Part shown: in pieces, positions 2,318-38,452 of the stretch | Layout: every line of letters begins with the position of its first letter | Numbering within the stretch: position 1 is the stretch's first letter | DNA from: Escherichia coli | GTDB lineage: Bacteria; Pseudomonadota; Gammaproteobacteria; Enterobacterales; Enterobacteriaceae | Direction: 5' to 3' (one strand) | Length of the DNA: 64,000 nt | NCBI RefSeq assembly: GCF_003018235.1 | Contig: NZ_CP027437.1 | Notes under the pieces: generated by a model | What the model was told of the DNA's origin: nothing | Seen by the model: the letters and a program-made list of their open reading frames with translations, nothing else | Database searches by the model: none | Translations under genes and position numbers: made by a program

Positions 2318-2518
2318 TTAATTTGATTTATTTGCATCCATTAGCGCTTTTAACTGCTCCGGCGTAAACGGTGGTTTGCGTCGGTGCAACATCGCATGGC
2401 AATTAGGGCACACAGGAAGCAAATCATTAACTGGATCCAGCTGGTAATCCTCTTTAATGGCTGAAAGCGGCACCAGGTGATGCACATTAAGCAATTTCAG
2501 AACCGCATGCTCATACAT
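2318..2518 (-). pseudogene. Short HNH-endonuclease-like ORF (66 aa), probably a truncated remnant
   Basis: Translation carries HH..P....N....CPNCH..H spacing typical of HNH nuclease cores but is far shorter than standalone HNH enzymes. Confidence 0.35.
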
Positions 2519-2655: not shown

Positions 2656-3264
2656 TTAACGATGTATCAGAACAATCTTGCGCCGGGAGAATAGCGTTTC
2701 CGCAGACAGCTGGAATTTATATTCCGCGGCCTTCAGCTTTCGCGATTTAAGCATTTTCATCGTGATACCCCTTATTTTCCCTGACTCAACCTGTCTCTTG
2801 ATTTCGCCGGTGCTCAGCATGAGCTGCTTTTGCAAAATCGACAGCAGGCTGACCTGAAACGAACGGGAAATCCTGACGCTAACCTTGACCCATTTGCCGG
2901 GAGAAAGGCTGGCTAACCACTGCTCCTGAATGCGAAAATCAGGCCGACCCGATAGCTCTGCGTTGTTCCGCTTCAGCATCGCGATATCACAGGAAAAATG
3001 TTGAACCGTGGCTGCATCGTTGCTCATCAGCCGGTTATGAAGTTCGCGGTCAATTTTGCTGACGTGCAGGCGCGAAAATAGGGAGATATTCCAGGTGTAA
3101 TCACAGTGTGTGCATTTATAGATACTCCACACGTCCAGCACCTTCTTTTGCGAATTAATCCGAAATGCACCTGATGGCGTGAAGTCCCGTTTAATGTTGC
3201 ATGAAGGGCATCGCTTCGCAATGCGCTGATACCCCACGGGCGTGACGGTCCATGTAACTTTCAT
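2656..3264 (-). CDS. Hypothetical protein with N-terminal CxxC...CxxC zinc ribbon and basic C-terminal region (202 aa)
   Basis: Long ORF with two CxxC pairs (CPSC, CTHC) and a K/R-rich C-terminus; no confident family assignment. Confidence 0.5.
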   Translation of the reverse strand: MKVTWTVTPVGYQRIAKRCPSCNIKRDFTPSGAFRINSQKKVLDVWSIYKCTHCDYTWNISLFSRLHVSKIDRELHNRLMSNDAATVQHFSCDIAMLKRNNAELSGRPDFRIQEQWLASLSPGKWVKVSVRISRSFQVSLLSILQKQLMLSTGEIKRQVESGKIRGITMKMLKSRKLKAAEYKFQLSAETLFSRRKIVLIHR

Positions 3265-3559: not shown

Positions 3560-3811
3560 ATGACACAGCACGAACGGTTTTGTCAGGCCTGCGGAATGCC
3601 GATGTCCGCACCTGATGCGCAGGGGAGTAGCGATAAATACTGTGCATACTGCAGCGATAGCAACGGCAATCTTAAACCCTGGGAAGAGGCGGTATCAGGC
3701 TTGGCCAGCTTCCTTGATTCCTGGCAAAAAGTCGGTCCAGAAGAAGCACAGAAGCGTGCAAAACGTTATCTGACGGCAATGCCTGCCTGGGCTCATAAAG
3801 CGGACGAGTGA
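3560..3811 (+). CDS. Small zinc-ribbon domain protein (83 aa)
   Basis: CQAC...CAYC motif; strong SD aaaggag 8 nt upstream of ATG. Confidence 0.5.
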   Translation: MTQHERFCQACGMPMSAPDAQGSSDKYCAYCSDSNGNLKPWEEAVSGLASFLDSWQKVGPEEAQKRAKRYLTAMPAWAHKADE

Positions 3812-3875: not shown

Positions 3876-4268
3876 ATGTTTTCTCACATTATGCTTGGAA
3901 CCAACAACCTGCCACGCGCCATTGCATTCTACGATCCGTTGATGGATATGCTGGGGTATCCCCGCGGCGGCAGGAAGAGGAGATCGCATGGTGGGGCGTT
4001 TTCAACGGTAATAACACTACGGCACTGGGTATCAGTAGGCCATTTGATAAACAGGTTGCCACGACCCGAAATGGAGTGATGGTCGCCCTGATTGCGCGTT
4101 CTGCCGAACACATCCAGCAAGTTTCATGTGCTAGCTTTAAATCACGGTGGCACTGACGAGGGAGCACCTGGCCAGCGTCCGCATTACGGCGAAGGGTTCT
4201 ACAGCGCTTACGTCAGAGACACCGATGGCAACAAGCTGGCTTACGTTTATTACACCGCACAATCCTGA
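3876..4268 (+). pseudogene. VOC/glyoxalase-family gene disrupted by frameshifts
   Basis: N-terminus MFSHIMLGTNNLPRAIAFYDPLMDMLGY in frame 1 (SD aaggaga upstream); the rest of a VOC-like protein (ALGISRPFDKQVATTRNGVMVAL... and GGTDEGAPGQRPHYGEGFYSAYVRDTDGNKLAYVYY) continues in the other two frames, implying at least two frameshifts. Confidence 0.5.
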
Positions 4269-4512
4269 GAACGATAAAGCGGGGGCCTCAGCGCCCCCAC
4301 CTGAAACTAAACCGATCCCGCAGATGTCAATGAGCGTTGAACGAGTTGATAAATGCCGAGATGTCTGACTGTTTTTACGCCAGAACTCCATGGTGTGACA
4401 ACCATACACATACTCCCTTCTTGACACCTTTAAACCATTTAACCGCATGCCTCTGTCTGCCCTGCAGGGACGGCTGATGCCTGTGTGTTGTCTGGCGGTA
4501 AGGAACAATACT

Positions 4513-4674
4513 ATGTACGCAAAATCCTTTATCGCTCTCGACGGGAATGGTCGTCTGACCGGTGCCCGTACTGCGCAGACCGCCCCTTACGATCGTTATA
4601 CCTGCCACCTCTGCGGTAGCGTGCTGCAATACCATCCTGAATACATCACCGAACGCCCGTGCTTTGAACAGTAA
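4513..4674 (+). CDS. Small hypothetical ORF (53 aa, MYAKSFIALDGNGRL...)
   Basis: ATG preceded by aagga-like SD; contains CHLCGS motif; function unknown, could be a remnant. Confidence 0.25.
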   Translation: MYAKSFIALDGNGRLTGARTAQTAPYDRYTCHLCGSVLQYHPEYITERPCFEQ

Positions 4675-5266
4675 CCAACACACTGACAGAGGGCGGCGAA
4701 AATGCTTTATGCAAATCTTGATGCAAAGGCAGCCAGACGAATTCGTAAGTTACGCTTTTACGTGGCAGATACTCAAAGCAGACTGGCATTGTAGCGACGA
4801 TTGCCACGGTGAACGCTATTGTATGGCATGTAGTACCTGAGACTTCAGCCGCCCAGTAGATATAGCATCATGAAAAAACTGAAATGCTTTCTTGCCAACA
4901 ACTCACTGAGCTAGTATGCCTCCACCGATGTAACAATTAGAGCAAGCGTCAAAGTGCGAAACTGCCCTCACGTAGCTGCAAGTTAACACCAGGAAATCCT
5001 GGTTCAAACACGACCAGCTCTATGTTAGCGGCAAGCAATCGTTGAACTAAACGCATATGCAGCCGGAGATGAAAGTTAGGAAAAAAGCAGAGGCTGATAA
5101 GAATTATGCACGTTGAGCTGGGATCGTAATACCCCACTTAAAATGTACAAGGGGAGTAGTCTAATGATGTTAAATACGAACCTTCAGTATTGTTCATTCA
5201 CCAATTTTCCCATATTCTCTCATCATTAATATTCTCTGCCGAATTTTATAGGGCTAACTCGCTGAA

Positions 5267-5470
5267 ATGAATGACAAAGCTTTAACCTTGAAAGATGTGG
5301 TGGCTTACTTAAAGTTGGCAGAAAAAACAGCGTATAGGTTGACTAGCGAAGGCAAATTGCCGGGATTTAAGGTTGAAGGCTCATGACGCTTCAAACGAGA
5401 GGATTTAGATATGTGGATTGAAGGTCAGAAGACTCAAAGCTACCCGAGTATCACAAAATCCAATCGTGGT
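5267..5470 (+). pseudogene. Excisionase/AlpA-like HTH DNA-binding protein interrupted by in-frame TGA
   Basis: Translation MNDKALTLKDVVAYLKLAEKTAYRLTSEGKLPGFKVEGS*RFKREDLDMWIEGQ; the stop at 5384-5386 sits where this family has the conserved Trp of the GSWRF motif. Confidence 0.5.
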
Positions 5471-5708: not shown

Positions 5709-8246
5709 ATGATAAATGACCATGAAGAACTAGAACTTGCTAAAGCTCAGGCAAAAGAAATATGGAAGATCCTTGATTATGTTCGAGGAGCATCACCTAT
5801 ATCTAATTATCGCTCATTAGCGTATTCAATCTTCTTCGTACGCTATCTTCAATCCAATACAGGTCAGCATTTTGAGGCAGAAAGGTTCGACTCTTTTAAT
5901 GTCATCGCCCAGTATTCCTACGATCTTGTAAACTATGCCGTTCAACTTGGATTGATTCATAGCGACGTATCTAAATTCTTAATTTATTATTTAGAAAACA
6001 CACTCCGTTCATTTGTCAATATTGATGAGTCTTTTGTTCGTTATGCAATTAGAGATGGTCTACTCAATAAAACCCCTGCAATAGCGTCGCTTTCTTTATC
6101 AGAACTGGATTTACTTTTTGCCGAGAATGAAGGTAAGTCAGGAGGTGAGTTTTATACCCCTAGAGACGTCAACTTATTGGTTAAAATATTAGGATTGAGT
6201 TATCAACCAAAGTCAATATGTGACCCATTTGCAGGTGCTGGAAACACAGCATTTCCTTTTGCCAATACTGGTATTGAAAAAGTTAGGATTGATACTCAAG
6301 AAATTAATAGAGATGCTTACTTTAAACTAGTAATAAGTAGAGTCATCAGGAAAATAGAAGGTCGAGACTATTTCGGCGATTCCCTATCACAACCATTATA
6401 TCAAGAAAATAAATATGATCTGATAGTTTCTTTCCCACCTTTTGGCATGAAAATTCCTAAAGCCACTCGAAATAATATTTACTATAAAACAAGTAATAAG
6501 TGGCTGGATATTACTGAAATCTTGCCAGAAAGTAGAAGTGATTGGTTTATAACATTATCAATGCTTCCAGCCCTTTCTGAGGGGGGTAAGATACTAGTAG
6601 GTATGTCACTTGGGGCTTTGACAAGAGCAGGCTCTGAGGCAAAGGTTCGTGAGTATTTAGTCTCTCGCGGAATTATCGAACAAGTAATTCTTTTACCTAA
6701 AAATATTTATTACTCTACGGCTATCTCAACTGTACTTCTTGTCCTCAACTCAGGAACAAGTAACATAAATAACAGAAGTATTAAATTTGTAGATGCTTCA
6801 CTGTTTTACGAGCCTGCCCGTGGTCGAAACACCCTCACAACAAAAAATATAAATGAGATCGTAGAGGCTTGTCATAAAGATGGCCGATTTAGTATTAGTT
6901 CATCTCATACCCAAATAGCAAACAGAGACTTTAATTTAGATCCGTCTCTTTATGTACGTAAAGATCTCAAAATCAGTGAGGTTTCTTTAAAAAATTTTAG
7001 AGGATACTCTGACTTTAAAGTTTCGATACATCCTTCTTTAAATGTATTGGTTGGTGAGAACGGCGTCGGGAAAACTTCGATATTAGAAGCATTAGCATGT
7101 GGCCTTGGTCCTTTCCTTACTGCTATGCCTGATGCTAAAGGAAAACTGATAAAAAAATCAGATATCCATATAAGTTCAAAAGGAATCGCAAATTATGCTC
7201 GAATATCGATTGAAACAACATCAAGTTTAAGTTGGGATCTTGTGGCAAAGGGGGTTGATGTTTCCGAGCCCCCTAAGATAGGAACATCAGCATTAACTAG
7301 CTACGCTACTCATCTTGTAGATAGTCAGTCTGAATATCCACTCATTGCTTATTATGGGACTAACCGTGCTCTTACTTCTACCAGTTCTAAAGTTGCAATA
7401 AATCCATTCGAGAAAGAAAATCGTGGGGAAGGTTATGACTTTGCTTTAGATGCTAAAGTTAACTACGGCATCTTAAAGAACTGGTTTTCAAAAATAGAGG
7501 TTGATGAGCTTCGAAAACGTGATGAACTAAAAGACCATAAATTCATTCATCCGGCTAAGAGACTTGTTTCAGAGGCTGTTTACCAGATTGTTGATCGAGC
7601 TACATGCTTGGAGTTCGACAAAAATAGTAACGATGTTATGGTTCATTGGAAAAATGAGCAGGGAGAGTGCGTAAAGCTTACATTGGAACAACTAAGTGAA
7701 GGGTATAGAAATATGGTATCCCTGACCATTGACCTAGTGAGGCGTGCTTATTTACTTAATCCTACCAAACCGAAACCGCTAACAGTTAATGGGATCGTTT
7801 TAATTGATGAAATTGAACTTCACTTGCACCCTAGATGGCAGCAAAAGATTTTAAATGATCTTACTAAGCTGTTTAAGAATATTCAGTTTATTGTCACGAC
7901 ACATAGTCCTCAAGTCTTAACAACAATCAAAGCCGATTGTATCCGTATTGTTTCCGTCAATGCTAACGAAGCAAAATTAGTGACAGGAACTACTACTTAC
8001 GGTTCTGAAAGCTCAAGAATGTTGGAAGATGTTTTAGGTGGTAACAATCGCGCCCAACATCTTGATATTGTTAAAAAACTAAACCGTTATACAGAGTTAG
8101 TAGAGGCCGACAAATGGGATACCGATGAGGCATTAGAACTCAAAAAAGAGTTATATAAATGGGGTGGTCAGACAGAAGACGAGCTTCAAAAATTAGAAAC
8201 TGATATTCGAATTCGCGAGTTCGAGCGTGGCAATGAAAAAGATTAA
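5709..8246 (+). CDS. Fusion protein: N-terminal gamma-class N6-adenine methyltransferase-like domain plus C-terminal ABC-type ATPase (Septu PtuA-like)
   Basis: MTase-like motifs in order X-I-IV: EFYTPRDV (about aa 147), DPFAGAGN (about aa 172), SFPPFG (about aa 240). ATPase motifs: Walker A GENGVGKTS (about aa 449), Walker B VLIDEIELHLHP (about aa 695), TTHSP (about aa 730). AT-rich coding sequence. Confidence 0.75.
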   Translation: MINDHEELELAKAQAKEIWKILDYVRGASPISNYRSLAYSIFFVRYLQSNTGQHFEAERFDSFNVIAQYSYDLVNYAVQLGLIHSDVSKFLIYYLENTLRSFVNIDESFVRYAIRDGLLNKTPAIASLSLSELDLLFAENEGKSGGEFYTPRDVNLLVKILGLSYQPKSICDPFAGAGNTAFPFANTGIEKVRIDTQEINRDAYFKLVISRVIRKIEGRDYFGDSLSQPLYQENKYDLIVSFPPFGMKIPKATRNNIYYKTSNKWLDITEILPESRSDWFITLSMLPALSEGGKILVGMSLGALTRAGSEAKVREYLVSRGIIEQVILLPKNIYYSTAISTVLLVLNSGTSNINNRSIKFVDASLFYEPARGRNTLTTKNINEIVEACHKDGRFSISSSHTQIANRDFNLDPSLYVRKDLKISEVSLKNFRGYSDFKVSIHPSLNVLVGENGVGKTSILEALACGLGPFLTAMPDAKGKLIKKSDIHISSKGIANYARISIETTSSLSWDLVAKGVDVSEPPKIGTSALTSYATHLVDSQSEYPLIAYYGTNRALTSTSSKVAINPFEKENRGEGYDFALDAKVNYGILKNWFSKIEVDELRKRDELKDHKFIHPAKRLVSEAVYQIVDRATCLEFDKNSNDVMVHWKNEQGECVKLTLEQLSEGYRNMVSLTIDLVRRAYLLNPTKPKPLTVNGIVLIDEIELHLHPRWQQKILNDLTKLFKNIQFIVTTHSPQVLTTIKADCIRIVSVNANEAKLVTGTTTYGSESSRMLEDVLGGNNRAQHLDIVKKLNRYTELVEADKWDTDEALELKKELYKWGGQTEDELQKLETDIRIREFERGNEKD

Positions 8247-9021
8247 TAAGCTAGATGAGCCAAATCGGCTTGGTGTGTTCAAGGCTACTCATCCTAATGC
8301 TTTGTGGGAGAGGGATAAAAACTCAATTGAAGAGGCTTTCCGTTGTTGCATTGCCAGATATCAAGAAACTCTACAACAATTACGTACGGACCAAGGTAAT
8401 TTATGTGCATATTGTGAACAGGATTTAATGTCTGGAACTAATGGGGCATTAGATGACTGCCGTATTGAGCATTTTCATCCGAAATCTAAACGTGAACAGG
8501 GAGAACCTAATTGGGCTTTGGAATGGAGCAATTTGTTAGTTGTTTGCTGTGGCGGAAATCAAAGTAAAGTTGTTAATCCTGGGCAAAGATTTGATGCTGA
8601 TCCCAAAAATTACTCTTGCGATGTACCAAAGAGTGACAAAATTTTAGATACCATTATATTAAATCCACTTAATTTACCTGAATTAAATATCTGGAAGTTT
8701 CATCGTTCTTCGGGGCAAATTTCCGTAAATGAAGATTCCTGTTTAGAATTTGGTATAAGTGTTGAAATGGCACACCAAACAATTAAAGAATTGAATTTAA
8801 ATTCCCCTCGATTAATTAGATTTCGAAAGGCTATTCTAAATAATCTCAACATTTTAATAACAGAAAGGCTGAAGAAGGGACAAACGGTAGAGCAAGCTGT
8901 TAGATTTATTGCCATATCACTCTTTAGAAAAAATGGAGCAGGTGATTGGCCCTCTTTTTTTAGTGCAACACGATATTATTTAGGTCAGCAGGCTGAGCTT
9001 GTTTTAGCCCAACCTATTTAA
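8227..9021 (+). CDS. HNH nuclease (Septu PtuB-like)
   Basis: Motif CAYCEQD...DDCRIEHFHPKS...WSNLLVVCCGGN; start (GTG 8227 or ATG 8233) overlaps the stop of the upstream ATPase gene, indicating an operon. Confidence 0.7.
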   Translation: MAMKKINKLDEPNRLGVFKATHPNALWERDKNSIEEAFRCCIARYQETLQQLRTDQGNLCAYCEQDLMSGTNGALDDCRIEHFHPKSKREQGEPNWALEWSNLLVVCCGGNQSKVVNPGQRFDADPKNYSCDVPKSDKILDTIILNPLNLPELNIWKFHRSSGQISVNEDSCLEFGISVEMAHQTIKELNLNSPRLIRFRKAILNNLNILITERLKKGQTVEQAVRFIAISLFRKNGAGDWPSFFSATRYYLGQQAELVLAQPI

Positions 9022-9081: not shown

Positions 9082-10515
9082 CTACAGGGGCGATGCTAGC
9101 TCAGAGAACCAAGCGTGAACTGATCTGTAAAATGTGCTGATTGACCAAAACTCACTGCATGCAGCAACTAACAGAATGACCACTAAGAGGATCACTACAG
9201 TAGAAGTCATTCTTTCCACACGGCAGTATGATCCCATCGCATCTTTTACAGGTTGTCTAGCCAGTTCCTGATAATCCAGCTCATCCAGAAATCCGTATAA
9301 TTTAGTTCTCCAGGTGGTTCTAACTCTTTCAAGTAATGAAATTGTTTGCCTATTAATATAGACAGACATTCCATAGGAAATAACTATATAAACCGCGATA
9401 GCACAAAAAACCAAAGCGTAAATATTTTGCAAACCAACTGATTTTACTGCATCCAGACTGTAGCGAATAACCAAGACACTAATTACAAGAGCCATATCTT
9501 TCCATAAGGAAGAGGACAAATCTCGGGATTGCTGAATGATCTTTTGTGTATCTTCAGCCAGCGTTTTCCGCAAATCACCCAAGGATTTCATAGTATCTTT
9601 ACCACCAGTCCTGATATGGGCCTTATACATTAACCGTGCAGACTCCAAAGCTGATGAGAGTCGAAGCATCACTCCCTCACAAAAGTTCAGGTCTGAAGGC
9701 CACTCTCTAGCCAGCTCGCTGGACAAAAACGTATGTTTCAGCTCAGTTTCATTCCCCTCTAGAAAAATCCACTTTGCCGCTTCCTGGATAATATCAAAAG
9801 CAGGTAACGCTGCCGTCTCATCGCCGAATGCTATTTTTCTGGGAGGCTTTCCCGCAAGCCCCACCATCATTTCGTCAGCAAAAAAAAGTTCATTTGCAAA
9901 ACATTTCAGCAACTCTCGGCATCCTAGCAATTTCCATATCTTGATTGCTTCATCAGTCTTCTCACTACAAGTTTCAAGTATCCAAGGGGCAATGGCATCT
10001 GGAGGAAGAAAAGTTGTTGAATAACATTTGATGATACTTTTTGTTACTGAAGGCTTAGTGATAGCTGTTGCATCACCAGCACTCACCGGCTGTATCTCCT
10101 TCCATGGATGCACATACCAACTTATTGTCTGAAAGCCTTCAGTAATAAACAGCCCATAAATATGTTTGTACCGACAGAGTTTGCTATCTTGAAGTAAAAA
10201 AGTGCGCCATCCTTCTAAGGTAAAAAGCCTCAGTATCCCCGGAATTTCATTATAAGTGATGGTAATGTAGTGCTTCTGCCCTGGGACCCCCTCTCTCGGA
10301 TGAATAACATCTCTGCTCTCATCGATAAAAACGATCTTGAGATCTTCCGCATGTACATCCACTATTTCTCCCCATAAATCAAGGGATTCACTATCCATTG
10401 TGGCGGAAATAAAAAGCTTATGGATAGACACCTGCTGGTCCTCTGTGATCACAAGGTCAGATAAATGTCGTGAGTGGCATATAGCCTTACCGATTTTTTC
10501 CAATATCGATATCAT
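9082..10515 (-). CDS. Hypothetical protein with C-terminal transmembrane helices (477 aa)
   Basis: Long ORF; C-terminal hydrophobic segments (IYALVFCAIAVYIVISYGMSVYI and STVVILLVVILLVAACSEFWSI); 29-nt overlap with the upstream gene; no recognisable catalytic motif. Confidence 0.55.
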   Translation of the reverse strand: MISILEKIGKAICHSRHLSDLVITEDQQVSIHKLFISATMDSESLDLWGEIVDVHAEDLKIVFIDESRDVIHPREGVPGQKHYITITYNEIPGILRLFTLEGWRTFLLQDSKLCRYKHIYGLFITEGFQTISWYVHPWKEIQPVSAGDATAITKPSVTKSIIKCYSTTFLPPDAIAPWILETCSEKTDEAIKIWKLLGCRELLKCFANELFFADEMMVGLAGKPPRKIAFGDETAALPAFDIIQEAAKWIFLEGNETELKHTFLSSELAREWPSDLNFCEGVMLRLSSALESARLMYKAHIRTGGKDTMKSLGDLRKTLAEDTQKIIQQSRDLSSSLWKDMALVISVLVIRYSLDAVKSVGLQNIYALVFCAIAVYIVISYGMSVYINRQTISLLERVRTTWRTKLYGFLDELDYQELARQPVKDAMGSYCRVERMTSTVVILLVVILLVAACSEFWSISTFYRSVHAWFSELASPL

Positions 10516-11548
10516 CTGTTACCAATCCTGCAGTCACAATTACAATTCGTTTTCGCCCGTCTTCCATATTTTCTACTTCTGGTGCATTGTCTTCATCGTA
10601 GATAATGATTACATCTTCCAATGTTTCCAGTTTTCTCTTCCGGGGCTTCTGAATGTTATCGGGAATGATGCGGAAAGATTCACCTGAAATTCCTAAATCC
10701 TTTATTTTACGAAAAAAATACTTAACCAGAGGGTGTTCTTCCTCCAAAGGACCAAAAATCTGGGTCAACAATGGCAGTGCTTCATCAGTATTAAAATCCT
10801 GTTCGCCATGGCGTAAAGTTTCATAAATTTTGTTTACTCCGCTGCGCTTGATCTCTTCAGGTAGTAAGTTTCGATGCTTTTTATATACATCTTTTAATAC
10901 AGTAACTAGCTTATCGCTGAGCTGAGTTGGGTCATTGACGCGCTTAACCTGTAGAAATCGTTCAAAATAGACAGAGATGTTAGTACGTTTGCTGCGATCT
11001 CGTACGACAACTAATCCGCCCGGCAAATCTTCATTCAGCCGTACCAGTGCGATTTTCTGCATGGCTTCGGCTTTTTTAACGAAACTTTCGCGAAAGCGTT
11101 CGAGTTTAGGTACCTGAAACTCATCTCCTTCAACATCCAGCACATAACGGACTACATCTTCATTGTCATACTTAATCAACGCATACAGTTTCTCATCGTT
11201 GAGTGTATGAAGTTCAAAAAGGAAAAAAACGCCCATACTGGCATTCTTGGTATGGTGGTGAGACTGAAAATCGCTTGCCAATAAGGAGGATTGCTCAGTA
11301 AAGCAGCCGATATCGGTGTCTGCATGTTCCCTGATGATCCTCAGGATTCGCTCTGTATTTGACAACTCCTTAAAATGAAACATATTGCCACTAACTGCAG
11401 ATTTGATACGTTCCAGAAAGAAATCAACATGCTCCGGAGGGGAAATTTCGCTGAGTAAAACAGGGACTTCCAACTCACCGCCAACCACATGAAAAATCAT
11501 CCTTTTTATTGATAATGCATTGATTTCTTCATCCGTTAAAAAACTCAT
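10487..11548 (-). CDS. Hypothetical protein (353 aa), weak resemblance to NdpA/YejK-type nucleoid-associated proteins
   Basis: Long ORF first in a two-gene operon; size and scattered sequence patterns recall YejK, but this is an unverified impression. Confidence 0.5.
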   Translation of the reverse strand: MSFLTDEEINALSIKRMIFHVVGGELEVPVLLSEISPPEHVDFFLERIKSAVSGNMFHFKELSNTERILRIIREHADTDIGCFTEQSSLLASDFQSHHHTKNASMGVFFLFELHTLNDEKLYALIKYDNEDVVRYVLDVEGDEFQVPKLERFRESFVKKAEAMQKIALVRLNEDLPGGLVVVRDRSKRTNISVYFERFLQVKRVNDPTQLSDKLVTVLKDVYKKHRNLLPEEIKRSGVNKIYETLRHGEQDFNTDEALPLLTQIFGPLEEEHPLVKYFFRKIKDLGISGESFRIIPDNIQKPRKRKLETLEDVIIIYDEDNAPEVENMEDGRKRIVIVTAGLVTDDIDIGKNR

Positions 11549-11744: not shown

Positions 11745-12998
11745 TTACATTATTAGGGCAAAATCAAACGGACTCACCCCCTTCTCCCGATTCGCATCCA
11801 GATAATTTGCCCACCACTGCAGCATCAACCTACGCTCCCCAAGATGTTCCGCCTTATGGATGTATGCCGCCCGCACAGAGCTACGCTCCTGATGGCTCAT
11901 CTGCCGCTCCACTGCATTCCTCGACCACAATCCTGATTCAATAAGTGAACTACAGGCCATCGTCCTGAAACCATGCCCACAGACTTCCGTTTTGGTGTCA
12001 TAGCCCATAACTCGCAAAGCCTTGTTCACCGTATTCTCACTCATCGGCTTATGCGGATCGTGATCGCCCACAAAAATCAGCTCTCGATTTCCATTCATGC
12101 TTTTGATCTTTTCCAAAATAGCTAAGGCCTGCCGCGATAAGGGTACAAGATGGGGAGTTCGCATCTTCGAACCACGCTGAGAATGTTTAACACCGTCCAA
12201 CGGTTCACGCTCACCGGGGATCGTCCACATGGCCGTTTCAAAATCCACTTCTGACCAACGGGCAAAGCGCAGTTCGCTTGAACGGATGAAAACTAACAAA
12301 GTGAGTTCGACAGCCAGTCGAGTTAACGGCCTGCCGGAGTAATGATCAATGCGGTGAAGTAATTCAGGTATGCGGTTAAGCTCCAGAGCCGCACGATGCT
12401 GTCTTTTAGCAGTAGCAACCGCACCGGTAATCTCTTGCGCGGGGTTGTAGTCGATTAAGCCGCTCTGAACGGCAAAGCGCATAATCGCGGTAGTTCGCTG
12501 CTGTAAACGGGCGGCGACTTCAAGACGTCCGGATGACTCCACCGCTTTAATGGGTACAAGAAGATCCCGAGTCTTAAGCTCTGCAATGTTCCGCTTACCG
12601 ATAGCAGCAAAGAGATTATCTTCTAGGCTTTTCAATACACGAGCACTATGCGATGCAGACCACTTCTGATTACTGGCATGCCAGTCTCTGACGACCACTT
12701 CAAACGTTATCGCCTCTTGCTCCTGTTCTACCTTAACCGCTTTCTTGTTTTCACTGGGATCGACGCCGTTCGCTAAAAGCTTACGCGCTTCGTCTCGCCG
12801 CGATCGAGCATCAGCTAACGAAACTTCAGGATACTTCCCTAGCGCCAGCATCTTCTCTTTACCACCGAAACGATAACGAAGCCGCCAGTATTTGGAGCCG
12901 TTAGGGTGAACCAGCAAAACCATGCCTTCACCATCAGTAAGTTTATAGGCTTTTGCTTCAGGCTTTGCCGAACGAACCTTCACATCACTCAGAGCCAT
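11745..12998 (-). CDS. P4-type tyrosine integrase (IntB-like), apparently intact
   Basis: Translation MALSDVKVRSAKPEAKAYKLTDGEGMVLLVHPNGSKYWRLRYRFGGKEK... matches P4/CP4-like integrases and ends with a tyrosine-recombinase C-terminus; adjacent to tRNA-Leu 3-prime end. Confidence 0.85.
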   Translation of the reverse strand: MALSDVKVRSAKPEAKAYKLTDGEGMVLLVHPNGSKYWRLRYRFGGKEKMLALGKYPEVSLADARSRRDEARKLLANGVDPSENKKAVKVEQEQEAITFEVVVRDWHASNQKWSASHSARVLKSLEDNLFAAIGKRNIAELKTRDLLVPIKAVESSGRLEVAARLQQRTTAIMRFAVQSGLIDYNPAQEITGAVATAKRQHRAALELNRIPELLHRIDHYSGRPLTRLAVELTLLVFIRSSELRFARWSEVDFETAMWTIPGEREPLDGVKHSQRGSKMRTPHLVPLSRQALAILEKIKSMNGNRELIFVGDHDPHKPMSENTVNKALRVMGYDTKTEVCGHGFRTMACSSLIESGLWSRNAVERQMSHQERSSVRAAYIHKAEHLGERRLMLQWWANYLDANREKGVSPFDFALIM

Positions 12999-13196
12999 GA
13001 TGAATATCCTTTCAAGGGTTCTGTGTGGGTACAAACATTATCGAACCGGGATATACCCGCAGTTGTACCCGCATCAGTAAGTTGATGTAGATTGAATCAG
13101 GTTGACTTAGGTTGAGTGAAAAAGCGAGGAAAGCCTTGCGGATACTGGATTTCAGGCATAAAAAAAGACCTCAGTTGAGGTCTATTTACATACTTA

Positions 13197-13281
13197 TGGT
13201 GCCGAAGGCCGGACTCGAACCGGCACGTATTTCTACGGTTGATTTTGAATCAACTGCGTCTACCGATTTCGCCACTTCGGC
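13197..13281 (-). tRNA. leuX: tRNA-Leu (CAA)
   Basis: Reverse complement reads GCCGAAGTGGCGAAATCGGTAGACGCAGTTGATTCAAAATCAACCGTAGAAATACGTGCCGGTTCGAGTCCGGCCTTCGGCACCA, with cloverleaf features and a long variable arm. Confidence 0.9.
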
Positions 13282-38074: not shown

Positions 38075-38214
38075 AAGGAGTCCCTCCGCACTGTCTGAAA
38101 CAGTACAGAAATGTCTTCAGGCGTGGCGAAGCCTTACCTGAAGGTAATAAAGCTGAGCAGGGACGTTAAAACGTCACGGCCTTACGCATCCGGTAACGCC
38201 GTGAAAAGACGGGC
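38075..38214 (-). promoter_or_regulatory. mgtA leader (Mg2+/proline-responsive region downstream of mgtL)
   Basis: Position between mgtL and mgtA start; assignment from established knowledge of the mgtA leader. Confidence 0.5.
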
Positions 38215-38268
38215 TTACCGGAAAAGTTTTAATCTCCGTCGAGGGAGAGGCGTGGGATCAGGTTCCAT
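38215..38268 (-). CDS. mgtL: mgtA leader peptide
   Basis: 17-aa proline-rich translation [17 protein letters not shown] upstream of mgtA. Confidence 0.8.
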
Positions 38269-38452
38269 ATAACCTCCGGTAAGTGAAAAAAGCGCCGCAA
38301 ATAATAAGGAGAATCCAATAATATTCGTAGCATCTATGGCGATATAATACCTGCTGGCAACTAAACCAACGATAAACCAGACTTTACCCATTGCTGAATG
38401 CACGGGTAAAGTTAGGCTCAAATAATTAAACAACACGTTACGGGACAACAGG

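Follow-up and report, generated by a model that had tools for sequence, protein, structure and literature searches.

A 53-codon open reading frame in the leuX island of Escherichia coli is very probably the intact-looking 5' end of a DUF7828/Zn_ribbon_11 pseudogene

The DNA analysed here, referred to throughout as the window, is a stretch of 64,000 nucleotides of Escherichia coli contig NZ_CP027437.1. The locus of interest lies in an island that is inserted at leuX, beside nanS, and the window opens with a 404-aa ORF (51-1265) which we take to be, probably, nanM. The genes and gene remnants from nanS to leuX, the locus itself excepted, are the following.

1303-2310: nanS
2318-2518, minus strand: HNH fragment, a C-terminal piece of an endonuclease
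2656-3264, minus strand: DUF1062 gene
3560-3811, plus strand: Zn_ribbon_2 gene
3876-4268, plus strand: frameshifted gene of the VOC/glyoxalase family
5267-5386, plus strand: HTH_17 remnant
5709-8246, plus strand: gene for an 845-aa protein, an N6-methylase fused to a PtuA ATPase
8227-9021, plus strand: PtuB HNH nuclease (E=2e-100)
9082-10515, minus strand: 477-aa protein with no Pfam or PADLOC match
10487-11548, minus strand: NA37-like nucleoid-associated protein (E=1e-12)
11745-13034, minus strand: tyrosine integrase
13197-13281, minus strand: leuX, tRNA-Leu(CAA)

Relics cluster at the nanS-side end of the island, where the decayed VOC gene and the HNH fragment flank the locus. A direct repeat of leuX of at least 14 nt, which would delimit the island as an att site, was not found. 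Searching the window by tblastn gave neither a Gp2-like gene nor a second paralogue of the family described below, so that the Gp2-like context usual for this family is absent here.

Several features of the island and of the rest of the window were recorded in passing. The HTH_17/AlpA-like excisionase-type gene (5267-5470, plus strand) is interrupted by a TGA at codon 40 (...FKVEGS, stop, RFKREDLDMWIEGQ), at a position where Trp would presumably be expected, as in such excisionases; the resulting 39-aa HTH_17 stub is still called a 'helix-turn-helix transcriptional regulator' by PGAP in two sister genomes. The genes of the Septu-like defence pair (5709-9021, plus strand) overlap by 20 nt. Its 845-aa member consists of a type-I-like N6-adenine methylase (aa 137-418; PADLOC MTase_I, 1e-30) followed by a complete PtuA ATPase (aa 420-843; E=5e-106), and, judged by titles, no paper was obviously on the subject of such a fusion. 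Between the Septu pair and the integrase, the 477-aa ORF and the NA37-like gene, both on the minus strand, overlap by 29 nt and may form a further island or defence pair. Elsewhere in the window, matches at the Rfam gathering level were obtained for the Ysr276 antisense RNA (19296-19490, minus strand, 186 bits), a magnesium riboswitch (38168-38283, minus strand, 126 bits) and naRNA4 (55187-55263, minus strand, 62 bits), the last being barely over its cut-off.

The ORF with which we are concerned runs on the plus strand of the window from an ATG at 4513-4515 to a TAA at 4672-4674. The initial annotation had described it as a 53-codon frame with an AAGGA well spaced before the ATG, and this is exactly what is present: the putative Shine–Dalgarno sequence occupies 4500-4504 and is separated from the ATG by 8 nt. 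The predicted 53-aa product includes the segment MYAKSFIALDGNGR. An alternative in-frame ATG upstream, at 4447, would give a 75-aa form, and this is the start used by one public gene call (P0001); in the homologues, however, the start always falls at the position equivalent to 4513 and not to 4447. The parts into which the locus can be divided are listed below.

4373-4405, plus strand: upstream block TTTTTACGCCAGAACTCCATGGTGTGACAACCA, common to the regions upstream of other DUF7828 genes (five-way alignment)
4467-4512, plus strand: native DUF7828 5' leader of 46 nt, including AAGGA 4500-4504 (eight-allele alignment; 97.8% identical to intact allele L019)
4513-4674, plus strand: the ORF, read from the window sequence; its translation, MYAKSFIALDGNGRLTGARTAQTAPYDRYTCHLCGSVLQYHPEYITERPCFEQ, begins MYAKSFIALDGNGRL and ends PCFEQ
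4675-4794, plus strand: decayed middle of the gene, family positions 54-92, in the same frame; contains TGA 4684-4686, has lost His65-Cys66 and ends at TAG 4792-4794
4769-4840, plus strand: remnant of the C-terminal zinc ribbon (Zn_ribbon_11), ILKADWHCSDDCHGERYCMACST followed by a stop; in frame +2, beyond a 14-bp deletion, with an early TGA at 4838-4840
4841-4870, plus strand: last trace of the family's C-terminal tail, past the stop (a tblastn match to P0121 residues 93-129 extends to 4870)

The Pfam profile PF25165 (DUF7828) matches the ORF with a score of 60.7 bits (cut-off 25.7; E=1.1e-16). This match is confined to profile positions 1-51 of 87, so that a complete DUF7828 is not found in one open frame. 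With two intact 130-aa proteins, P0122 and P0123, the ORF shares 96% identity over their residues 1-52, and in intact relatives PF25165 is followed by a C-terminal PF11682 (Zn_ribbon_11). The ORF accounts for 38% of a DUF7828/Zn_ribbon_11 gene, at its N-terminal end, and is closed by the premature TAA at 4672-4674. Neither the ORF nor the intact DUF7828 members gave a family match in NCBIfam, PHROGs or PADLOC.

This homology bears directly on one alternative, which is that the frame arose by chance in non-coding DNA and that its AAGGA is fortuitous. The ORF is indeed short, at 53 codons, and the region contains many overlapping ORFs of similar length on both strands. Against this, the Shine–Dalgarno sequence and the start position are conserved in all homologues, whereas a 102-aa antisense ORF (4375-4683) has no family match. 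A chance origin is refuted by the matches to the Pfam profile (E=1e-16) and to the family HMM described below (E=5e-42), and we regard its probability as practically nil. The surroundings of the ORF had also been described as a roughly 900-bp stretch without other convincing genes. The stretch is gene-poor, covering 998 bp (4269-5266) between the frameshifted VOC gene and the HTH_17 remnant, but it is not fully non-coding: 4675 to ∼4870 holds what decay has left of the remainder of this gene, and recognisable content is lacking only in 4871-5266.

Genes of the parent family are commonly met in the genomic islands of enterobacteria. When 1.84 billion cluster representatives were searched exhaustively with a profile, only 239 matched at E<=0.001, and every match bearing an organism name is from the Enterobacterales. 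Of the 120 proteins that best matched an intact member of 130 aa, 110 have lengths of 128-143 aa, with a mode of 140 aa. In these 110 full-length members eight residues are conserved at 92-100%: C31, C34, H65, C66, C100, C103, C113 and C116. The spacing CxxC-9-CxxC is present in 130 of the 144 family proteins of 125-145 aa, and 12 of the other 14 are without the motif altogether. Family members are small proteins, ∼130-140 aa in length, for which two zinc sites are predicted. The AlphaFold2 model of P0121 (pLDDT 81, pTM 0.70) shows five N-terminal beta strands (residues 5-53), two helices and a C-terminal ribbon, and it has no significant structural neighbour. No papers were found for DUF7828 or DUF3279, and YagK, YfjJ, Zn_ribbon_11, PF11682 and PF25165 gave incidental matches only.

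In every full context that we examined, the DUF7828 gene lies behind a backbone made up of an AlpA-like gene, an ORF of 197 aa and a gene of the YagK/YfjJ (inovirus Gp2-like) type, and variable cargo follows it, so that it marks the border between backbone and cargo in tRNA-integrated islands. The intact DUF7828/Zn_ribbon_11 genes are often in tandem, as two paralogues of ∼32% identity that overlap by 13 nt directly after the Gp2-like gene (L007:8001-8797, L013:5001-5806 and similar loci). Our best guess at what the family does, which is drawn from context and held with low confidence, is that it would be a small two-zinc accessory of the AlpA/Gp2-like backbone module of the island, binding nucleic acid or protein.

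The gene does not end where the ORF ends. A family HMM was built from the 110 full-length proteins (128-143 aa) and run on the three forward frames of 4447-4960. In frame 1 it matched over positions 1-92 at E=5e-42, reading through the TAA (codon 54) and through the TGA at 4684-4686 (codon 58), and in frame 2 over positions 80-129 at E=1.6e-11, ending in ILKADWHCSDDCHGERYCMACST and a stop. The leader, the ribosome-binding site and codons 1-49 are intact, and the damage starts at codon 50. W50C and H53Q are the only departures within the ORF at well-conserved positions (W 88% and H 98% in the family). Further downstream, two DNA alignments against intact alleles gave a net loss of 6 nt in a scrambled stretch at ∼4670-4703, and a tblastn match to P0121 spans 4513-4776. 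The frame is shifted by a 14-bp deletion, which two independent DNA alignments place at 4767/4768, and a 9-bp deletion at 4794/4795, seen in two DNA alignments, removes C103, the second Cys of the first CxxC of the ribbon. The Zn_ribbon_11 remnant falls below the Pfam cut-off (E=0.23), and a complete CxxC-9-CxxC ribbon is lacking. At the N-terminal Cys/His set of C31, C34, H65 and C66, 92-99% conserved in the family, the two Cys are kept in the ORF, while H65 and C66 have been replaced by '...AKMLYAN' past the stops. Of the eight conserved family ligands, the ORF retains just C31 and C34. Homology to the parent that continues past the stop, together with several disabling lesions, is the operational mark of a pseudogene. 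To judge from the sequence, any peptide made here would lack the second putative zinc site altogether, would have the first only by half, and would be non-functional.

We conclude that the ORF is very probably the intact-looking 5' end of a pseudogene of the DUF7828 plus Zn_ribbon_11 family. It had been suggested initially that the frame might be the N-terminal fragment of a lost larger gene. A fragment it appears to be, as it aligns to residues 1-53 of proteins of 128-143 aa, but the rest of the gene is recognisable downstream and so is not lost. The frame itself is conserved in homologous regions, the point on which the initial annotation would have let its proposal fall, and it is conserved as part of a longer gene.

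The locus was compared with the intact allele L019, which encodes P0122, an entry named from Klebsiella aerogenes. Identity to this allele is 97.8% in the leader and 98.1% in the ORF, and falls to 70.4%, with 28 additional gap columns, in the part after the stop. Only 2 mismatches fall in the 193 nt of 4467-4659, as against 52 in the 181 nt of 4660-4840 (Fisher p=2.6e-16), and the best breakpoint of the mosaic lies at 4662. One of the two 5' mismatches is L019's own R19H, codons 1-49 being otherwise identical. The ratio of 3' to 5' divergence is ∼16 for the window against L019, compared with 0.6-2.6 in those pairs of intact alleles in which L019 is one member. Put another way, an intact Klebsiella-type allele agrees with the leader and codons 1-49 at ∼99%, whereas no sampled allele exceeds ∼70% identity in the 3' part. 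A closer intact allele for the 3' part was not found: the best matches were at ∼70% in DNA among E. coli complete genomes, and at ∼65-69% in protein among 367 fetched proteins.

Purifying selection would not preserve synonymous sites, and the two parts should therefore have different histories or ages. We infer such a difference between the 5' patch (4467 to ∼4661) and the 3' part, and its likely cause would be homologous recombination, or gene conversion, within the patch common to all alleles. Whether the 3' part is an old decayed relic or comes from a divergent allele that has taken on a few lesions, the gene is dead. In summary, the parent gene belongs to a family carried by tRNA-integrated islands of the Enterobacterales, this copy residing in the leuX island. 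It is wrecked from codon 50 onwards (W50C, H53Q, stops at codons 54 and 58, the His-Cys loss, the 14-bp and 9-bp deletions and the early stop), and its 5' patch and 3' part would probably have been joined through recombination or gene conversion in the patch that the alleles have in common.

The same locus is present in other strains. E. coli PapM-32-1 (NZ_CP049204.1) carries the whole 4300-5200 stretch at 99.3% identity, and the equivalent there of window 4513-4840 is annotated by PGAP as a pseudogene (G6Z93_RS23455, 4220949-4221276), 'putative zinc ribbon protein, frameshifted'. PapM-32-1 has in addition an extra island segment at the left (YagK/YfjJ, a retron-type RT and CbtA/YeeU); the window, unlike PapM-32-1, runs directly into the HNH fragment and nanS. 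An identical ORF is also present in L023, a third copy that comes from a sequencing-run assembly. The copies known so far (window, PapM-32-1 and L023) do not differ in the ORF and show a few differences in the flanks; as about two would have been expected, this is not significant. Strain CFSAN018748 has the same island layout, but ISEc31 replaces the sequence from the VOC gene to window 4630 (4269-4630 lost), so that most of the ORF is deleted. Among 5426 complete E. coli genomes, 2432 (∼45%) contain a match to the conserved 5' patch and only 2 have the truncated form; high-identity matches to 4672-4870 and to 4841-5266 are likewise confined to 2. This stop position is limited to the three near-identical copies, and a frame of the same length is not seen in independent lineages. 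Other short DUF7828 entries in the databases are partial sequences at contig ends, or copies frameshifted elsewhere with unrelated tails. On present sequences, decay of the DUF7828 gene appears to be recurrent, with no particular short form conserved. We also noted that alleles annotated as 'intact' in E. coli FDAARGOS_1373 and B27 (L002:5213-5602, L003:4046-4363) have lost the N-terminal CxxC by a 3-bp deletion (CH-SSSV vs CHLCGSV); although their frames are open, these alleles may be functionally impaired too.

These comparisons bear on whether the ORF could be a real small protein, as was also proposed at the outset. In such a case it would be a functional, stand-alone, beta-rich DUF7828 module of 53 aa, either retained or re-installed, which might, for instance, compete or associate with full-length members or with the Gp2-like protein. 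The leader and Shine–Dalgarno sequence are intact, so that a 53-aa peptide may still be translated, codons 1-49 match intact allele L019 save for its R19H, and the ORF is identical in all three copies. In the AlphaFold model of a full-length member the five beta strands fall within residues 5-53, which would make the fragment approximately a structural sub-domain. However, the 99% identity in DNA extends to synonymous sites, which argues for recent shared ancestry rather than selection, and the changes that are specific to this copy are all non-synonymous and at near-invariant residues. H65 and C66, half of the putative zinc site, are missing, the stop position occurs in no other lineage, with the form itself confined to 2 of 5426 complete E. 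coli genomes, and in CFSAN018748 the ORF is mostly deleted. A consensus scan of 4200-5300 scored no sigma-70-like promoter, so that a promoter-like site is wanting as well. We consider a functional small protein decidedly improbable: no homologue conserves the stop, the other short forms are partial or frameshifted, and W50C and H53Q fall at near-invariant residues.

The leader itself deserves separate comment. Together with the Shine–Dalgarno sequence, the spacer and the start it forms the native translation start region of the family, and eight alleles, drawn from E. coli, Salmonella, Serratia and Klebsiella-type islands, conserve it; the megablast matches obtained in some 2400 E. coli genomes have their left ends at 4457-4467. 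The ORF looks like a good small gene because the native leader, the Shine–Dalgarno sequence and the first 49 codons of the family are intact. It might be supposed that the leader and the 5' coding segment are kept for a role as DNA or RNA, the ORF being incidental; the segment would then act as a hairpin that hides the Shine–Dalgarno sequence, or as a homology patch for cargo swaps. The leader is ∼80-98% identical across genera, and RNAalifold pairs AAGGA 4500-4504 with UCCUU 4525-4529 (codons 5-6) in all eight alleles, hiding the Shine–Dalgarno sequence. The pairs of this helix are invariant across the eight alleles, however, and show no covariation; the sequence of the window is predicted to fold no more stably than shuffled versions of it (z=-0.5), and Rfam finds nothing in the leader. 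The near-invariant N-terminal protein sequence is in itself sufficient to explain the conservation of the DNA.

A role as a homology patch would agree with the way in which the neighbours on both sides reassort around the DUF7828 gene: upstream there is either [AlpA-orf197-Gp2-like] or [Zn_ribbon_2-VOC], and downstream [MFS cargo], [queD-dpd] or [Septu island]. These observations come from a few loci and do not amount to a statistical test. Overall, there is only a slender chance that the segment is kept for a DNA or RNA role. A further proposal, which we also think unlikely, starts from the sharp contrast between the 5' patch and the 3' part and takes it to be more than a historical accident: the DUF7828 leader and the first ∼150 nt would serve as a preferred crossover point for the exchange of island cargo behind an AlpA-orf197-Gp2-like backbone. 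The present locus would then preserve the trace of one such event or, in a variant of the proposal, the re-installed 53-aa module would be expressed and act alone.

With the 5' end of a pseudogene as the preferred reading, a candidate 'new small protein' can be removed from the list, its convincing look having been inherited from the start region of a real gene. The pseudogene as such was already known, in that a standard annotation pipeline recognised it in a sister genome, and the family is catalogued. As DUF7828 alleles are visibly mosaic, they may be useful as a marker for tracing the reassortment of island cargo.

The closest known relatives are the proteins that combine PF25165 with PF11682 (Zn_ribbon_11, formerly DUF3279) and that NCBI names 'putative zinc ribbon protein', such as WP_240767716.1 (E. 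coli A30, 130 aa) and WP_204628148.1 (FDAARGOS_1373, 129 aa). The CxxC-9-CxxC of this family is a zinc-ribbon signature like that of rubredoxin-like ribbons, for example ribosomal eL43/L37Ae, and weak matches to the L37Ae profile were obtained (E=0.13-0.75). The window copy resembles intact members in its start codon, its Shine–Dalgarno sequence, its leader, its N-terminal 52 residues (96%) and its location in a tRNA-integrated enterobacterial island. It differs from them in that 53 of ∼130-140 codons are readable, the rest comprising two stops, a frameshift, two further indels and an early stop, and in that four of the eight Cys/His ligands have either disappeared (H65, C66, C103) or been left in a different frame.
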